Below are positions 1,801 to 53,820 of a stretch of DNA of 64,000 nt, one piece after another. A program made the position numbers and the translations under genes. The notes under the pieces were generated by a model. That model did not search any database. It saw only the letters and a list, made by a program, of their open reading frames with translations, and had not been told where the DNA came from. This stretch comes from Escherichia coli (GTDB taxonomy: Bacteria; Pseudomonadota; Gammaproteobacteria; Enterobacterales; Enterobacteriaceae): NCBI RefSeq assembly GCF_044324785.1, contig NZ_CP172127.1. The stretch is one strand, 5' to 3'. Numbering within the stretch: the first letter of the stretch is position 1; each line of letters starts with the position of its first letter.

Positions 1801-2157
1801 AAGTCTCGCTGACTACAGGAACAGACTATTTTTCGCGACGCGAATTATCAATCTCTTTCTGTAACCAGAATGTAAGAACATGAGCAACCGCACATATTTT
1901 GATGATTTTTGTTACAAGGCTTAAGTTGTAGTTGAAAGGTGTGTTGAAGAAAAAATGCGTGAATTTCCAGCAAGATGAAAGCGGTTACATTTTATTTAAT
2001 TATGATTTGTAATTTTAAATTTGCTTTATGAATAAATTACGAAGCAGAATTAATTCGCGAAGAAAAGCAGAAAAAAACGCCGCGGAGCGCGGCGTTTGGG
2101 ATTGTTTGCATATTTCTTGCCGGATTCGGCGTAAACGCTCTATCCGACAACGTAAAA

Positions 2158-3822: not shown

Positions 3823-3983
3823 CGTGGATTCCTCAAAGCGTAAACAACGTATAACGGCGTATGATCTTATAAGCGGGACAGGCTGACAACTGTTAGTTAG
3901 TGAAAATCGAAAATCTCACTGAGATTATGGGGATGATTGATGAAAAAAAAAGCGGCAGAGAAGATCTCCACCGCTTGTCATTG

Positions 3984-4013
3984 TTGGATGCGACGCTCAA
4001 GCGTCGCATCAGG
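3984..4013 (-). terminator. REP-like palindromic hairpin downstream of nagE (likely nagE terminator)
   Basis: Palindrome GGATGCGACGCTCAAGCGTCGCATCAGGC just 3' of nagE stop. Confidence 0.45.
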
Positions 4014-4024
4014 CATAAAGCAGA

Positions 4025-10341: not shown

Positions 10342-10597
10342 ATAGCAACCACGCCTCAGGGCGTGGTTTCTTATTTTTACCCATCATTAAAATCACCCTA
10401 TTCAATAAAACCCGTCAAAAATTATCGATCCATCAATAAATACGCCACCACACCCTATCCTTTTTCACAAATCAGCAATCGCCATTACGTTTTTTATTTT
10501 TCCACCGCCAAATCGCTTGCGCACAGTGCTGCTTTGCGGCATTTTTTTAAACAAGCAAACACAACAAGCAACAAATACCAGGTTAACGGAGAAGGTT

Positions 10598-12262: not shown

Positions 12263-12641
12263 GACGTGTATTATTGCCCCGGAGAAATCCGGGGCAATTT
12301 CAGTTACTGGGGCGCTTGTTGATTCTGATATGCAGTAAGGAAATGTTCCGGGTTTGCCACATCACTGTTTGACAACTCATCACTGTAGGCCAGTACTTCA
12401 TAGATTAATTTCCCACCACTATTGTTGAATTCCGAATTTCATCCTGTATGACAAAAGAATGGCTGTAGGGTGGGGAAAAAACACAAAGTAAACAATAATT
12501 GACGAATATAGCGCCACGCTGTTCGCAACCTAACCAAACAGTCACTTTCGAGCAATTTTCCTTGAAAAAGAGGTTGACGCTGCAAGGCTCTATACGCATA
12601 ATGCGCCCCGCAACGCCGATAAGGTATCGCGAAAAAAAGAT

Positions 12642-12718
12642 GGCTACGTAGCTCAGTTGGTTAGAGCACATCACTCATAATGATGGGGTCACAGGTTCGA
12701 ATCCCGTCGTAGCCACCA
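12642..12718 (+). tRNA. metT: tRNA-Met (elongator, anticodon CAT)
   Basis: 77 nt GGCTACGTAGCTCAGTTGGTTAGAGCACATCACTCATAATGATGG...CGTAGCCACCA; cloverleaf with CAT anticodon and encoded CCA. Confidence 0.95.
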
Positions 12719-12726
12719 TCTTTTTT

Positions 12727-12811
12727 GCGGGAGTGGCGAAATTGGTAGACGCACCAGATTTAGGTTCTGGCGCCGCAAGGTGTGCGAGTTCAAGTCTCGC
12801 CTCCCGCACCA
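12727..12811 (+). tRNA. leuW: tRNA-Leu (anticodon TAG), long variable arm
   Basis: 85 nt GCGGGAGTGGCGAAATTGGTAGACGCACCAGATTTAGGTTCTGG...CTCCCGCACCA. Confidence 0.95.
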
Positions 12812-12834
12812 TTCACCAGAAAGCGTTGTACGGA

Positions 12835-12909
12835 TGGGGTATCGCCAAGCGGTAAGGCACCGGTTTTTGATACCGGCATTCCCTGGTTCGAATCCAGGTA
12901 CCCCAGCCA
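12835..12909 (+). tRNA. glnU: tRNA-Gln (anticodon TTG)
   Basis: 75 nt TGGGGTATCGCCAAGCGGTAAGGCACCGGTTTTTGATACCGG...CCCCAGCCA; paralog name (glnU vs glnW) ambiguous. Confidence 0.95.
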
Positions 12910-12924
12910 TCGAAGAAACAATCT

Positions 12925-13001
12925 GGCTACGTAGCTCAGTTGGTTAGAGCACATCACTCATAATGATGGGGTCACAGGTTCGAATCCCGTCGTAGCCACC
13001 A
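12925..13001 (+). tRNA. metU: tRNA-Met (elongator, anticodon CAT), identical second copy
   Basis: 77 nt identical to the copy at 12642-12718. Confidence 0.95.
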
Positions 13002-13049
13002 AATTCTGAATGTGTCGAATAAGTTCGGCAAATTCACAAACCAATTTGT

Positions 13050-13124
13050 TGGGGTATCGCCAAGCGGTAAGGCACCGGATTCTGATTCCGGCATTCCGAG
13101 GTTCGAATCCTCGTACCCCAGCCA
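13050..13124 (+). tRNA. glnV: tRNA-Gln (anticodon CTG)
   Basis: 75 nt TGGGGTATCGCCAAGCGGTAAGGCACCGGATTCTGATTCCGG...CCCCAGCCA; paralog name (glnV vs glnX) ambiguous. Confidence 0.95.
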
Positions 13125-13128
13125 CATT

Positions 13129-13160
13129 AAAAAAGCTCGCTTCGGCGAGCTTTTTGCTTT
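13129..13160 (+). terminator. Rho-independent terminator of the tRNA operon
   Basis: AAAAAGCTCGC-TTCG-GCGAGCTTTTTGCTTTT: GC stem, tetraloop, T-run. Confidence 0.8.
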
Positions 13161-13211
13161 TCTGCGTATATTCAATGTCGAATGCGATGTTGACACGTCT
13201 TATCCTTCAAA

Positions 13212-13248
13212 GTCGGATGCGACGCTGACGCGTCTTATCCGACCTACG
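13212..13248. repeat. REP (repetitive extragenic palindrome) element
   Basis: GTCGGATGCGACGCTGACGCGTCTTATCCGACCTACG resembles the E. coli REP consensus; a partial second copy lies just upstream (about 13185-13205). Confidence 0.6.
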
Positions 13249-13277
13249 GTTGGCATGCATCCGGCAATGTTGTAAGG

Positions 13278-14453
13278 CTACAACCCTAACGCATATTTCA
13301 GCGCCTGACGTTTCAACACGCCAGCACGCTCCGCCGCCATCAAACCAAGATTACGCACAAAACGCAGTGGTGGCAGATTATTGCTGAATCCGGCATAAAA
13401 CAGATCCATACCGCTCTGCATAATGAAGTTATCCGCCATGCGCCGCATCTGGTAACGCTTGAGGATCGGATAACTGGCCCACGCTTCGCCATGGCTGCGA
13501 GCGTTGACCAGAACGTCAATCAGGGCATCGACATCACGATAACCAAGATTCACCCCCTGCCCCGCCAGCGGATGAATGGTGTGCGCCGCATCGCCCACCA
13601 GCGCAAGCCCCGGCTGCACATACTGCAACGCATGGCGGCGCGTCAGCGGAAAAGCGCCAGCGGCAAGCGGTGTTACATACCCAAGACGCGACGGGAAATG
13701 CTTCGCGATTTCCGCCTGTAACTGCGCCATATTCATATTCTGCAACTGGCGAATGCGTGCCGGAGAGTCATACCACACCAGCGATGCCCAGTTATCAAAC
13801 AACGGCAGAAACGCACGAGGTCCATCCGGGGTAAATTGCTGCCAGGTGCTGTCGCCGGGATCGTTCTCACACTGTACGCTAATCAACATACACGACTGTG
13901 CATACTGCCAGGCATGAACGCCAATTCCCGCCATCTGCCGCACCTGCGAATTTGCGCCGTCGGCACCAATCACCAGCTTCGCGCGGATCGTTTCACCGCC
14001 CTTCAGTTCCAGCTCCTGAAGATCATTATGGCGATGCAGCGCAATCAGCGAGCCTGGCACACGTAACGTTACTTTCGGATGCGCTTCCAGCGCCTGCCAC
14101 AGCGCCTGTTGCAGGACAGTGTTTTCCACCATGTAGCCAAGCAACGGTAGCTTAAGTTCAGCGGCGTCAAACACCACATGCGCCGTTTCCCACTCCCACG
14201 TTTCCAGTCTGCGGTAGGGATGGCAACGCATAGCCTGTACCGCGTCCCAGACGCCTAAACCTTTAAGCAATGATACCGAAGCCGCGCTGATCGCCGAGAT
14301 CCGCACGTCCGGCTGGCTGTCAGCGACAAACGGTGCAGGTTGGGCATGTTCGATAACCATTACCGAAAATCCGTGCTGAGCCAGTCCCAGCGCCAGTGCG
14401 CCGCCGACCATTCCTCCGCCGACAATGGCAATTTCCGTTGGTTGATTTGTCAT
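13278..14453 (-). CDS. ubiF: Ubiquinone biosynthesis hydroxylase UbiF (FAD-dependent monooxygenase)
   Basis: 391 aa from MTNQPTEIAIVGGGMVGGALA (FAD-binding GxGxxG); track ORF begins 2 codons upstream. Confidence 0.9.
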   Translation of the reverse strand: MTNQPTEIAIVGGGMVGGALALGLAQHGFSVMVIEHAQPAPFVADSQPDVRISAISAASVSLLKGLGVWDAVQAMRCHPYRRLETWEWETAHVVFDAAELKLPLLGYMVENTVLQQALWQALEAHPKVTLRVPGSLIALHRHNDLQELELKGGETIRAKLVIGADGANSQVRQMAGIGVHAWQYAQSCMLISVQCENDPGDSTWQQFTPDGPRAFLPLFDNWASLVWYDSPARIRQLQNMNMAQLQAEIAKHFPSRLGYVTPLAAGAFPLTRRHALQYVQPGLALVGDAAHTIHPLAGQGVNLGYRDVDALIDVLVNARSHGEAWASYPILKRYQMRRMADNFIMQSGMDLFYAGFSNNLPPLRFVRNLGLMAAERAGVLKRQALKYALGL

Positions 14454-20211: not shown

Positions 20212-20222
20212 TCCCTTCTTAT

Positions 20223-20290
20223 CGTGCCGGAATACATCCCGTATTTCGGCACGCTCACCGGATGCGGCATCAGTGCGTTATCCGGATAAC
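20223..20290. repeat. Hairpin followed by REP-like element downstream of lnt
   Basis: CGTGCCGGAATACATCCCGTATTTCGGCACG stem-loop, then CACCGGATGCGGCATCAGTGCGTTATCCGGATAAC (REP-like). Confidence 0.5.
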
Positions 20291-20607
20291 AAAATTCCCC
20301 TATCCAACTTTGGCACATCTATTGCTTTGTTATACAAGGCAAAGCTTGAACCAGCATCAGTACAACCCGATTGCACCACAGCAATCCACGGGTAGCACCA
20401 AAAGAGTGCATTTTAAGAATTTTGCTTCGGAATGGTGCGGCGCATCTCGCAAAAACAAACAATAAAACATCAATATCTTTACATTTAGCCAAACTAAATG
20501 TTACCTAACAAGCACAACACTGCACAATAAAGTTGCAGATGATAACAACACAAACACTCACAACGGGTATCCATGCGTTCTTAACGCAGAAGATAAAGGA
20601 GTTGGAT

Positions 20608-21516
20608 ATGCAATTACGTAAACCTGCCACAGCAATCCTGGCCCTGGCGCTTTCCGCAGGACTGGCACAGGCAGATGACGCCGCCCCGGCAGCGGGCAGT
20701 ACTCTGGACAAAATCGCCAAAAACGGTGTGATTGTCGTCGGTCACCGTGAATCTTCAGTGCCTTTCTCTTATTACGACAATCAGCAAAAAGTGGTGGGTT
20801 ACTCGCAGGATTACTCCAACGCCATTGTTGAAGCAGTGAAAAAGAAACTCAACAAACCGGACTTGCAGGTAAAACTGATTCCGATTACCTCACAAAACCG
20901 TATTCCGCTGCTGCAAAACGGCACTTTTGATTTTGAATGTGGCTCTACCACCAACAACGTCGAACGCCAAAAACAGGCGGCTTTCTCTGACACTATTTTC
21001 GTGGTCGGTACGCGCCTGCTGACCAAAAAGGGCGGCGATATCAAAGATTTTGCCGACCTGAAAGGCAAAGCCGTAGTCGTCACTTCCGGCACTACCTCTG
21101 AAGTTTTGCTCAACAAATTGAATGAAGAGCAAAAAATGAATATGCGCATCATCAGCGCCAAAGATCACGGTGACTCTTTCCGCACCCTGGAAAGCGGTCG
21201 TGCTGTTGCCTTTATGATGGATGACGCTCTGCTGGCCGGTGAACGTGCGAAAGCGAAGAAACCAGACAACTGGGATATCGTCGGCAAGCCGCAGTCTCAG
21301 GAAGCCTACGGTTGCATGTTGCGTAAAGATGATCCGCAGTTCAAAAAGCTGATGGATGACACCATCGCGCAGGTGCAGACCTCCGGTGAAGCGGAAAAAT
21401 GGTTTGATAAGTGGTTTAAAAATCCCATTCCGCCGAAAAACCTGAACATGAATTTCGAGCTGTCAGACGAAATGAAAGCACTGTTCAAAGAACCGAATGA
21501 TAAGGCACTGAACTAA
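20608..21516 (+). CDS. gltI: Glutamate/aspartate periplasmic binding protein
   Basis: 302 aa from MQLRKPATAILALALSAGLAQA (signal peptide); track ORF extends 25 codons upstream. Confidence 0.93.
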   Translation: MQLRKPATAILALALSAGLAQADDAAPAAGSTLDKIAKNGVIVVGHRESSVPFSYYDNQQKVVGYSQDYSNAIVEAVKKKLNKPDLQVKLIPITSQNRIPLLQNGTFDFECGSTTNNVERQKQAAFSDTIFVVGTRLLTKKGGDIKDFADLKGKAVVVTSGTTSEVLLNKLNEEQKMNMRIISAKDHGDSFRTLESGRAVAFMMDDALLAGERAKAKKPDNWDIVGKPQSQEAYGCMLRKDDPQFKKLMDDTIAQVQTSGEAEKWFDKWFKNPIPPKNLNMNFELSDEMKALFKEPNDKALN

Positions 21517-21674
21517 TTACAAGAACCAGGGGCGGAAATTCCAGCCCTCTCGATTGTTACGTAGCACGGACAGACTATACGCCTGATGGTCGTTCCCCAT
21601 CGGGCCTGAAAACCGCAATACGCTGGGTAACAATCTTCGAGGGTAGCAGTTAACGCTGCTACCCTCTTTTTTCT
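21512..21674 (+). ncRNA. sroC: SroC sRNA region (processed from the gltI 3' end/gltI-gltJ spacer) including intrinsic terminator
   Basis: Conserved spacer ending in GAGGGTAGCAG-TTAAC-GCTGCTACCCTC+TTTTTT hairpin at 21640-21674; location matches the known SroC locus. Confidence 0.6.
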
Positions 21675-26632: not shown

Positions 26633-26640
26633 ACACGGCT

Positions 26641-26673
26641 GCCGGATGCGGCATAAACGCTGCATCCGGCATC
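26641..26673. repeat. REP-like palindrome between convergent hscC and djlC
   Basis: GCCGGATGCGGCATAAACGCTGCATCCGGCATC. Confidence 0.5.
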
Positions 26674-26691
26674 GGCGCAAAAAACACTTCC

Positions 26692-50813: not shown

Positions 50814-50844
50814 CAAAAAAACCCGCTGATTAAGCGGGTTTTGA
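50814..50844. terminator. Bidirectional terminator between crcB and cspE
   Basis: AAAAAAACCCGCT-GATTA-AGCGGGTTTTG. Confidence 0.8.
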
Positions 50845-50861
50845 ATTCTTGCTGACGTATC

Positions 50862-51071
50862 TTACAGAGCGATTACGTTTGCAGCAGAAGGGCCTTTGGC
50901 ACCGTTAGTGATTTCGAACTCTACGCGCTGACCTTCAGCAAGAGTTTTAAAACCATTAGTCTGGATTGCAGAGAAGTGTACGAACACGTCTTTGCTGCCG
51001 TCTTCCGGAGTAATGAAACCGAATCCTTTGGACTCATTAAACCACTTAACGTTACCTTTAATCTTAGACAT
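50862..51071 (-). CDS. cspE: Cold-shock-like protein CspE
   Basis: 69 aa [20 protein letters not shown]... (RNP1 motif); track ORF extends upstream to an alternative start. Confidence 0.95.
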
Positions 51072-51245
51072 CAAAATTACCTTTACATGAAAAATAGACA
51101 CAAATGCTGTGTCGGTTACCAGTACACCAATTGTGGTACGCTTTGTCCAGTGCAACTTTACTAAAAAGTGATAAAAGTCGCGTTATTTTTGATGTTACTT
51201 ATTTTAGTTATTGATTTTAAAGAAGTTACTAAAACTTCATTTGTC

Positions 51246-51806
51246 TCAAAACTGAAAGCGCATCCAGGCAAAGTACACATTGCCATTGTTGTAGGTACCC
51301 GGAATGTAGGTCATCTGAAAAGTCACTGGACCATAACCCACAGAGGCCAATGGCAGTAGAACCGGGAGAGGGATGTAATTCCAGTTATCGCGTGCCGTTA
51401 CGCCAGCGGTGAATCCCAGACCTAAATGAAAATTTTCATCCGCCAGCGGTCGCCAGGTACTTTCCCATCCGTATCCGGCAATCGGTTCCCATTTGTTCCA
51501 CGAGTCCTTAAATGCCATGGCATACAGGCCATGCCAGTTTCCTTTTTCATCCCAACGCGACAGGCCAAAACCGCCACCCCACGGTCGCTCGTTATAGCGA
51601 TCGGTTTTTTCTTTGTCGTAAGCGAAACGTGCATGCCAGGTGATGGCAGGAATATATAAATCATAATGTTCAGGCTGTTGCCAGGTTTGTGCAATATTTT
51701 CTCTAAACGTTGTCATCCACTCATCTGCGTTAGCAAAAACTTTACCAACGCTGATTAACTGAATAAAAACAAAGGAAAAGATAGCGACATATTTACTCAC
51801 GTTCAT
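51246..51806 (-). CDS. pagP: Lipid A palmitoyltransferase PagP (CrcA)
   Basis: 186 aa from [25 protein letters not shown] (signal peptide); outer-membrane beta-barrel ending ...RFQF. Confidence 0.93.
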
Positions 51807-53780: not shown

Positions 53781-53820
53781 ATAGTCATGCCGGAGGCAAG
53801 TTTCCTCCGGCTTTATCATG

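Follow-up and report, generated by a model that had tools for sequence, protein, structure and literature searches.

Behind several genes of the Escherichia coli DNA analysed here, a stretch of 64 kb that we call the window, lie short palindromes resembling REP elements, and the question is whether these are intact, mobilisable repeats or something left behind by them. REPs are imperfect palindromes of approximately 35 nt, spread by the RayT (TnpA-REP) transposase; no repeats of E. coli are more abundant or have been known for longer, strain K-12 having some 600 copies, and their location is exclusively extragenic. They also occur in larger arrangements, BIME-1 being composed of a Y unit, an L linker with an IHF site, and a Z1 unit, and BIME-2 of tandem Y/Z2 arrays. 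A sequence-only reading had listed four sites, after the tRNA operon (site 1), downstream of lnt (site 2), between hscC and djlC (site 3) and downstream of nagE (site 4), and had called them typical, ordinary E. coli REPs. Our answer, in which we have considerable confidence, is that five sites carry REP- or BIME-derived sequence at differing stages of decay, located in 3′ untranslated regions in which they would act as hairpins. This is ordinary, already-annotated E. coli biology; what appears to be added, from comparison of the sequences, is the distinction of one canonical unit from five relics, a fifth site that had been missed, and within-species evidence for two collapsed BIMEs.

The window is, over its whole length, the reverse complement of positions 644364-710000 of K-12 MG1655, to which it aligns with 97-98% identity. 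The order of genes is chiP, glnS, nagE, nagBACD, asnB, the metT tRNA operon, ubiF, miaB, ybeZYX-lnt, gltIJKL, rihA, hscC, djlC and onward. Compared with K-12, there is no IS5 between lnt and gltI, and the alignment reveals two short intergenic segments that are absent from the window.

The E. coli REP has been described as an imperfect palindrome with GTAG in front and an AA/GC mismatch interrupting the stem, and TnpA-REP requires both the GTAG and the mismatch for binding and cleavage (PMC3333891, PMC8266576). A scan of the window with a Stern-type consensus of fixed spacing (GCCKGATGNCGRCGYNNNNNRCGYCTTATCMGGCCTAC, up to three mismatches) gave no match, the spacing being different even in the one canonical unit (unit B of site 1). 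Because this rendering of the consensus was too rigid, data-driven models were built. They were seeded with the canonical Y and Z2 units of the K-12 REPtron and REP325, together with those quoted in the supplement of Harris et al. 2026, and the final training set comprised 43 distinct units from 215 kb of K-12 DNA outside the window region. The training alignment supports a two-part stem, in that 97.5% of the cells are paired, compared with 26-45% after sliding of the partners, and in five pairs both sides have changed.

The covariance model derived from these 43 units was run over the window with the filters off. The highest score was that of unit B (13210-13250; 57.9 bits, E 6e-14), followed by unit A of the same site (13182-13203; 19.9 bits, E 0.0024), a unit behind glnS (2117-2154; 19.9 bits, E 0.0025), site 3 (26639-26677; 18.3 bits, E 0.0065), site 4 (4016-3980; 17.5 bits, E 0.011) and site 2 (20258-20285; 15.6 bits, E 0.037). 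The best unrelated match reached 10.7 bits (E 0.87), so that the top matches in the 64 kb are the four listed sites and the glnS unit, with noise beginning at E ~0.9. A sequence-only profile returned the same ranking, the best scores in 30 dinucleotide shuffles rising to 12.1 bits. REP-like palindromes at all four listed sites are thus borne out both by the sequence and by an independent model. Rfam gave no match at these sites at its gathering thresholds, and RefSeq record NC_000913.3 contains no REP features.

Copy numbers were obtained by short blastn against 5426 complete E. coli genomes, with counting capped at 40 pieces per record. Unit B has at least 40 similar places in each of 5425 genomes, and site 3 and site 4 have medians of 40 and 36 places per genome under this cap; these three are highly repeated and dispersed. 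Site 2 is only weakly so (median three places per genome), and unit A is not (median one). All of the units are extragenic, lying between open reading frames and between the K-12 genes, and the blastn matches carry no annotated feature.

Comparison with a reference genome is also informative. In the supplementary tables of bioRxiv 10.64898/2026.03.23.713779, REP59 is the lnt-insH3 element (MG1655 689265-689298), REP57 lies between hscC and djlC (approximately 681679-681717) and REP62 between nagE and glnS (705898-705933). Through the alignment these coordinates map onto sites 2, 3 and 4, respectively. The ubiF/glnX site is absent from those tables; it is the sole REP-like sequence between REP59 and REP61 and, going only by the numbering, is probably REP60. 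The check that the sequence-only reading had proposed, comparison with a REP consensus and with reference genomes, therefore comes out in its favour: models made from K-12 units match all four sites, and three of these are orthologues of named K-12 elements. Its description of them as typical holds for membership of the family, but only unit B is canonical and no intact BIME is present; the literal motif that it quoted, GCCGGATGCG...TTATCCGGC, is intact in no unit.

The units share with the Y, Z1 and Z2 types of MG1655 their positions, extragenic location, palindromic character and arms, and unit B has the full succession of GTAG, foot, bulge and stem. They differ in that two lack the bulge and one the foot, and in that a GTCGGA...TCCGAC foot goes with a Z2-like interior in unit B. 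On inspection of the sequences GTAG was found only in unit B (as CTAC, 13244-13247); neither unit A nor sites 2-4 nor the glnS unit (2117-2152) has it. Unit B and site 2 have the AA/GC bulge; unit A retains the bases that form it, the glnS unit has it in degenerate form, and sites 3 and 4 have continuous stems without it. Window positions 53789-53811 are the orthologue of another annotated MG1655 element, "REP56" (GCCGGAGGCAAGTTTCCTCCGGC, between dpiA and dcuC), a simple hairpin with no match to the covariance model; the MG1655 annotation thus includes non-canonical hairpins and is permissive.

Unit B (13212-13247) is encoded on the minus strand, which is the sense of the ubiF mRNA and reads GTAGGTCGGATAAGACGCGTCAGCGTCGCATCCGAC. 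It possesses GTAG, a 7-bp foot, an AA/GC internal loop, a 5-bp inner stem and a loop of 4 nt; the RNA hairpin folds with -22.3 kcal/mol (z -5.0), and the sequence profile gives 41.9 bits. In the foot, the rarer T-A pair is found where most units have C-G (2 of the 43 training units), a compensated variant. To its left lies unit A (13171-13205, plus strand), which consists of TTCAATG and a REP that lacks CTAC and the 3′ foot. It is the left-hand copy, now decayed, in a tandem duplication of 35 bp; five of the 35 positions are not those of the right copy (13206-13240; 86% identity), and tandem- and direct-repeat searches return a period of 35 and two copies. Its covariance match covers model positions 8-29 only, and it forms no hairpin (-4.8 kcal/mol, z +0.14). 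From its sequence, unit A is evidently the product of a local tandem duplication and not an independent REP. A nested insertion of unit B into an older hairpin had been considered, as unit A pairs with a downstream fragment in the fold; this was dropped, since REP heads are all mutually complementary and the duplication explains unit A. Nearly all E. coli genomes, and also E. whittamii, have the same arrangement, which must therefore be old.

Between the tRNA genes and the REP units is the intrinsic terminator of the tRNA operon (13130-13155, plus strand), recognised by the terminator scan and as an inverted repeat (I19), with an 11-bp stem that is preceded by an A-run and followed by a T-run. 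Both strands of it fold, and it may terminate in both directions. The sequence-only reading had placed a REP at 13185-13248 after the tRNA operon. A REP is indeed present and the position is right, but the range starts inside the decayed copy (13177-13205), the canonical unit, which ends in CTAC, occupying 13212-13247; and the site lies beyond the operon's own terminator, in the 3′ UTR of the convergent ubiF gene, and belongs to the ubiF transcript.

An exact-pattern scan of species genomes for the junction of units A and B matched two species; the pattern is fragile, missing the E. coli representative itself. One of the matches led to a different allele between djlC and hscC. In Escherichia sp. 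MOD1-EC7003 and in E. coli SBF22, this spacer contains a tandem array ending in CCGACCTAC, followed by a canonical Y REP with GTAG; 77 of the 5426 E. coli genomes carry it. Arrays of this kind, with foot-less REP units at a period of 35 bp, TTCAAYG joints and CCGACCTAC as the closing sequence, occur at two unrelated loci, namely ubiF-tRNA in essentially all E. coli and E. whittamii (window 13171-13247) and djlC-hscC in the 77 genomes and MOD1-EC7003 (400-505 of locus L012, 3283-3387 of locus L010). At the left end of the MOD1-EC7003 array (L010 3247-3283) there are five GGATGCC heptamers, a repetition of the REP head motif.

In the window, the spacer of the convergent genes hscC and djlC contains site 3 (26640-26671), whose sequence, TGCCGGATGCGGCATAAACGCTGCATCCGGCA, is a palindrome with hardly a flaw and has neither GTAG nor bulge. 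Its covariance scores are 18.3 bits (plus strand) and 15.3 bits (minus strand), and in the sequence profile both strands match the REP head; its hairpins have energies of -29.6 and -27.2 kcal/mol. Alignment with the array allele shows what the allele of the window and K-12 has retained: the flanks, the head GATGCCGGATGC that belongs to the leftmost inverted unit, and the tail GCGTTTAYGCCGCATCCGGCA that belongs to the Y REP. The sequence separating head and tail is missing. The product that a Y pair is predicted to give has one mismatch in 32 nucleotides to K-12 REP57. Site 3 therefore looks like an inverted-REP head joined to a Y REP tail after deletion of the centre of a BIME.

Site 4, in the 3′ UTR of nagE (3981-4015, minus strand), consists of TTGTTGGATGCGACGCT directly followed by CAAGCGTCGCATCAGGCA and likewise has neither GTAG nor bulge. 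It forms a perfect stem of 10 bp, and its feet, GTTGGAT and ATCAGGC, are not complementary. The two strands score 17.5 and 14.9 bits with the covariance model, and the head half 20.7 bits with the sequence profile. In strain 2018-10-1CC (locus L013), the nagE-glnS spacer contains an intact inverted pair, TTGTTGGATGCGACGCTTAAGCGTCTTATCCAACCTGG - ACTGAGCTTTT - GTAGGCCTGATAAGACGCGTCAAGCGTCGCATCAGGCA, with units of 44.8 and 62.7 bits, and the sequence of site 4 is exactly that of the two outer arms of this BIME. Site 4, too, looks like a BIME that has lost its centre by deletion, so that only the outer arms of a tail-to-tail inverted pair persist. Such an origin would account for three peculiarities: the feet do not pair because they come from two different units, the bulge is lost because each retained arm is the "GC" side, and GTAG is lost because it lay in the deleted centre. 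A regular-expression census of 215 kb of other K-12 DNA found no bulge-less palindromes against 50 canonical units, with a pattern that misses short-loop forms. In isolate 30821_1#274 (L014 90-200), the palindrome downstream of nagE has a different loop, GCTGCCGCG, and its neighbour on the other side is a gene for an SLC13-family permease, not glnS, so that this junction has been rearranged in some strains.

A different history, which we consider unlikely, would derive sites 3 and 4 from single REP units in which the mismatch was "perfected" by hairpin-templated repair or by point mutation. Replacement of AAG by GCA in a single Y REP would in fact suffice to give the sequence of site 3. Such a process would, however, have left GTAG in place, and instead the left flank is the inverted-REP head GATGCCGGATGC, as in MOD1-EC7003; the non-complementary feet of site 4, for their part, match those of two different units of 2018-10-1CC, as expected for a chimera. 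At both sites, deletion is the direction of change that parsimony would favour over an insertion recreating two complete canonical units. Intact alleles still segregate in a minority of strains at nagE-glnS and djlC-hscC, and that at djlC-hscC, rare as it is in E. coli (77/5426), could have been imported.

We lean, somewhat, towards the combined reading that bulge-less, GTAG-less "REP" palindromes such as REP57 and REP62 are centre-deleted BIMEs, no longer recognisable by RayT and fixed as immobile 3′-UTR RNA structures, and that the TTCAAYG array closed by CCGACCTAC and followed by a Y REP is an undescribed variant of the BIME. The idea of such a collapse is not new, the same route from BIME to singlet having been suggested for Pseudomonas REPIN singlets (Bertels and Rainey). 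Sites 3 and 4 look like the singlets of Pseudomonas fluorescens, which are regarded as defunct remnants (Bertels and Rainey 2011); these belong to a different REP family and host, and in E. coli one and the same locus is intact in some strains and collapsed in others. The two sites would be within-species examples of the conversion of a BIME into a single perfect hairpin, a route earlier only suggested for the Pseudomonas elements.

The SBF22 allele of djlC-hscC, in which CTAC-GA-GTAG and a complete Y REP come after the 35-bp array, draws attention to the sequence to the right of unit B. Positions 13252-13269 (plus strand, GGCATGCATCCGGCAATG) may be the 3′ half, or tail, of an inverted Y-type REP, in which case site 1 would be the relic of an inverted pair. 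We offer this tentatively, the head TTGCCGGATGC on the minus strand scoring 4.6 bits with the sequence profile, which is not significant alone.

The fifth site, which escaped the sequence-only reading although its four sites are real, is in the 3′ UTR of glnS. A degenerate Y-like unit, TTGCCGGATTCGGCGTAAACGCTCTATCCGACAACG (2117-2152, plus strand), lies between the stop codon (2158) and the glnS intrinsic terminator (2075-2097, minus strand), which was found by scan and fold and has a GC-rich stem of 10 bp followed by T7. In K-12, three units are found after glnS (L001 47767-47936), namely a canonical Y, a Z1 that an L linker separates from it, and a degenerate Y; the scores of the K-12 units are 62.7, 38.5 and 32.7 bits, and they include a canonical BIME-1. 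The window has a single, degenerate unit, on either side of which lie the outer flanks of the K-12 cluster. Of the 5426 E. coli genomes, 2456 carry the K-12 allele. K-12 has a second canonical BIME-1 (Z1 - L linker - Y, approximately 140 bp) in the umpH-asnB spacer, REP61, an allele of 2280 of the 5426 genomes; it is absent at window positions 10368-10400.

Presence/absence polymorphism of BIME-1 between strains has been published (PMC1187871), and the lack of both K-12 elements in the window agrees with this behaviour. The covariance-model scan found no intact inverted REP pair in the window, which also has no intact BIME and no L linker, as against the BIME-1 elements of K-12 at umpH-asnB and glnS-chiP and the inverted pairs of other strains at nagE-glnS and djlC-hscC. 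To judge from these alleles, the 3′-UTR sites appear to be repeatedly colonised and eroded by REPs. The suggestion of the sequence-only reading that REPs are recombination hotspots fits, in a general way, the allele differences between strains at these loci. With REP content varying at five 3′-UTR sites, the structure of the 3′ UTR varies between strains without any coding change.

It might be argued that all of the listed units are intact REPs or BIMEs that RayT can mobilise, and hence active non-autonomous mobile DNA. In favour of this, no canonical feature is missing from unit B, whose score is that of a bona fide REP, and REP content at these loci does vary between strains. Yet GTAG is missing from sites 2-4 and from the glnS unit (2117-2152), and the bulge from sites 3 and 4 as well, and TnpA-REP requires both features; these four score 15-20 bits compared with 57-63 for canonical units, and there is no intact inverted pair in the window. 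We regard such general mobility as quite improbable. Unit B alone keeps the features that RayT needs and could, on its sequence, be a candidate substrate; the rayT gene itself is outside the window (K-12 247637-248134). "REP" annotations thus mix a canonical unit on which RayT could act with immobile relics, which bears on analyses that equate all REPs as regulators.

Decay, rather than mobility, is what we favour for the remaining units. Site 2 (20256-20290, plus strand) is the REP59 orthologue in the lnt 3′ UTR and maps to K-12 689265-689298. This degenerate Y-like unit retains the foot and a GC/TT internal loop; the inner stem is eroded, and ATAAC stands in place of CTAC. With 7.0 bits (E 0.34) in the sequence-only profile it is within the range of shuffled sequences, so that its status as a REP is statistically borderline. 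Directly after the lnt stop codon, just upstream of the unit, is a further hairpin (20224-20252, plus strand) with a 13-bp stem, GTGCCGGAATAC...GTATTTCGGCAC, that has no covariance-model match and no U-run. The region 20212-20300 folds with -34.2 kcal/mol (z -5.4). The DNA downstream of lnt, including site 2, is present in the window's version in only 2187 of 5426 E. coli genomes. This junction (20212-20400) is variable: AST215 and E. whittamii instead have a convergent gene for a rhomboid protease (L009 750-900; L011 7650-7800), and AST215 has merely a scrap of REP tail, while E. whittamii has a canonical BIME-1.

Site 2 is the place at which to ask whether the hairpins, or at least this one, are gene-specific terminator or stabiliser stem-loops that came to resemble REPs by convergence on GC-rich palindromes. 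Its position within the noise of the sequence-only profile, its roughly three similar places per genome and the permissive MG1655 annotation, with a "REP56" that the model does not match, could be read in that way. Against this, site 2 retains the asymmetric GGATGC...TTATCC arms specific to the family together with the internal loop, it is the sixth-best covariance match and above the noise gap, and the E. whittamii allele downstream of lnt carries a canonical BIME-1; sites 3 and 4 and unit B, moreover, have from 12 to more than 40 similar places per genome. Convergence is, in our estimate, very improbable. That the matches are chance palindromes in GC-rich intergenic DNA has next to no likelihood and is refuted for all sites except, arguably, site 2, whose weak score by itself would allow it, given covariance E-values of 6e-14 to 0.04 with a clear gap to the noise at 0.87, shuffles that reach at most 12.1 bits, and the copy numbers of unit B and sites 2-4.

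We therefore return to REP-derived sequence at differing stages of decay: an intact unit at 13212-13247 with a left neighbour that tandem duplication produced and that has since decayed, degenerate single units without GTAG at lnt and glnS, and palindromes at nagE and hscC/djlC that would be the outer arms of tail-to-tail inverted pairs with the centre deleted. All of them are situated in the 3′ UTRs of genes, and the earlier claim that they mark operon boundaries agrees with the position of every site at a gene 3′ end. At ubiF, nagE and glnS the order is stop codon, REP and then a separate intrinsic terminator (13130-13155, 3976-3950 and 2097-2075, respectively), from which it follows that the REP is not the terminator there. 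The terminator of nagE (3950-3976, minus strand), found by the terminator scan, has a 12-bp stem followed by T8 and is located downstream of the REP62-like hairpin. No intrinsic terminator was predicted by the scan after lnt or between hscC and djlC, and in the folds the REP hairpins and the hairpin at 20224-20252 are the only strong structures at these two places. Like Rho-independent terminators, the REP hairpins are GC-rich stem-loops at 3′ ends; unlike these, none has a U-run behind it or was flagged by the terminator scan, and canonical terminators adjoin three of them. Their folding energies correspond to z values of -4 to -6.

The role of the REPs is most likely that of a transcribed hairpin which would protect 3′ ends and assist termination. 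Judging from position and folding, the hairpin would hold up 3′-to-5′ exonucleases and would pause, or help to terminate, transcription; at ubiF, nagE and glnS it would be an accessory structure of the 3′ UTR, and at lnt and hscC/djlC it is the likely 3′-end-forming structure. K-12 REP57 is listed among bidirectional terminators (bioRxiv 10.64898/2026.03.23.713779), and in K-12 Rho binding in vitro peaks over REP59 and at a distance of 43 nt from REP62. The proposal of the sequence-only reading that such repeats act as terminators or stabilisers fits these data, but it does not extend to termination at ubiF, nagE and glnS, where the terminator is separate. Nor do REPs uniformly lengthen mRNA half-lives, their effects being dependent on context (Harris et al.).

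Several features in the neighbourhood of these sites deserve mention. The empty site of K-12 IS5D is found at window positions 20505-20508; the target is CTAA, which is duplicated in K-12. A targeting of REP59 by this IS5 was considered and rejected, since the insertion occurred at CTAA, approximately 215 bp from the REP59-like unit and not within it. The metT-type tRNA operon (12642-13124) contains five genes (Met, Leu, Gln-UUG, Met and Gln-CUG) as opposed to seven in K-12. The region 12500-14000 is covered to at least 80% in one place in only 149 of 5426 E. coli genomes, and the five-gene allele of the operon seems, on sequence comparison, to be uncommon among E. coli. Rfam matches to the small RNA SroC, in the gltI-gltJ spacer, and to the cspA-thermoregulator family occur at 21512-21674 and 50814-51256 (minus strand), the latter approximately where the K-12 coordinate map places cspE; both are expected for this region.
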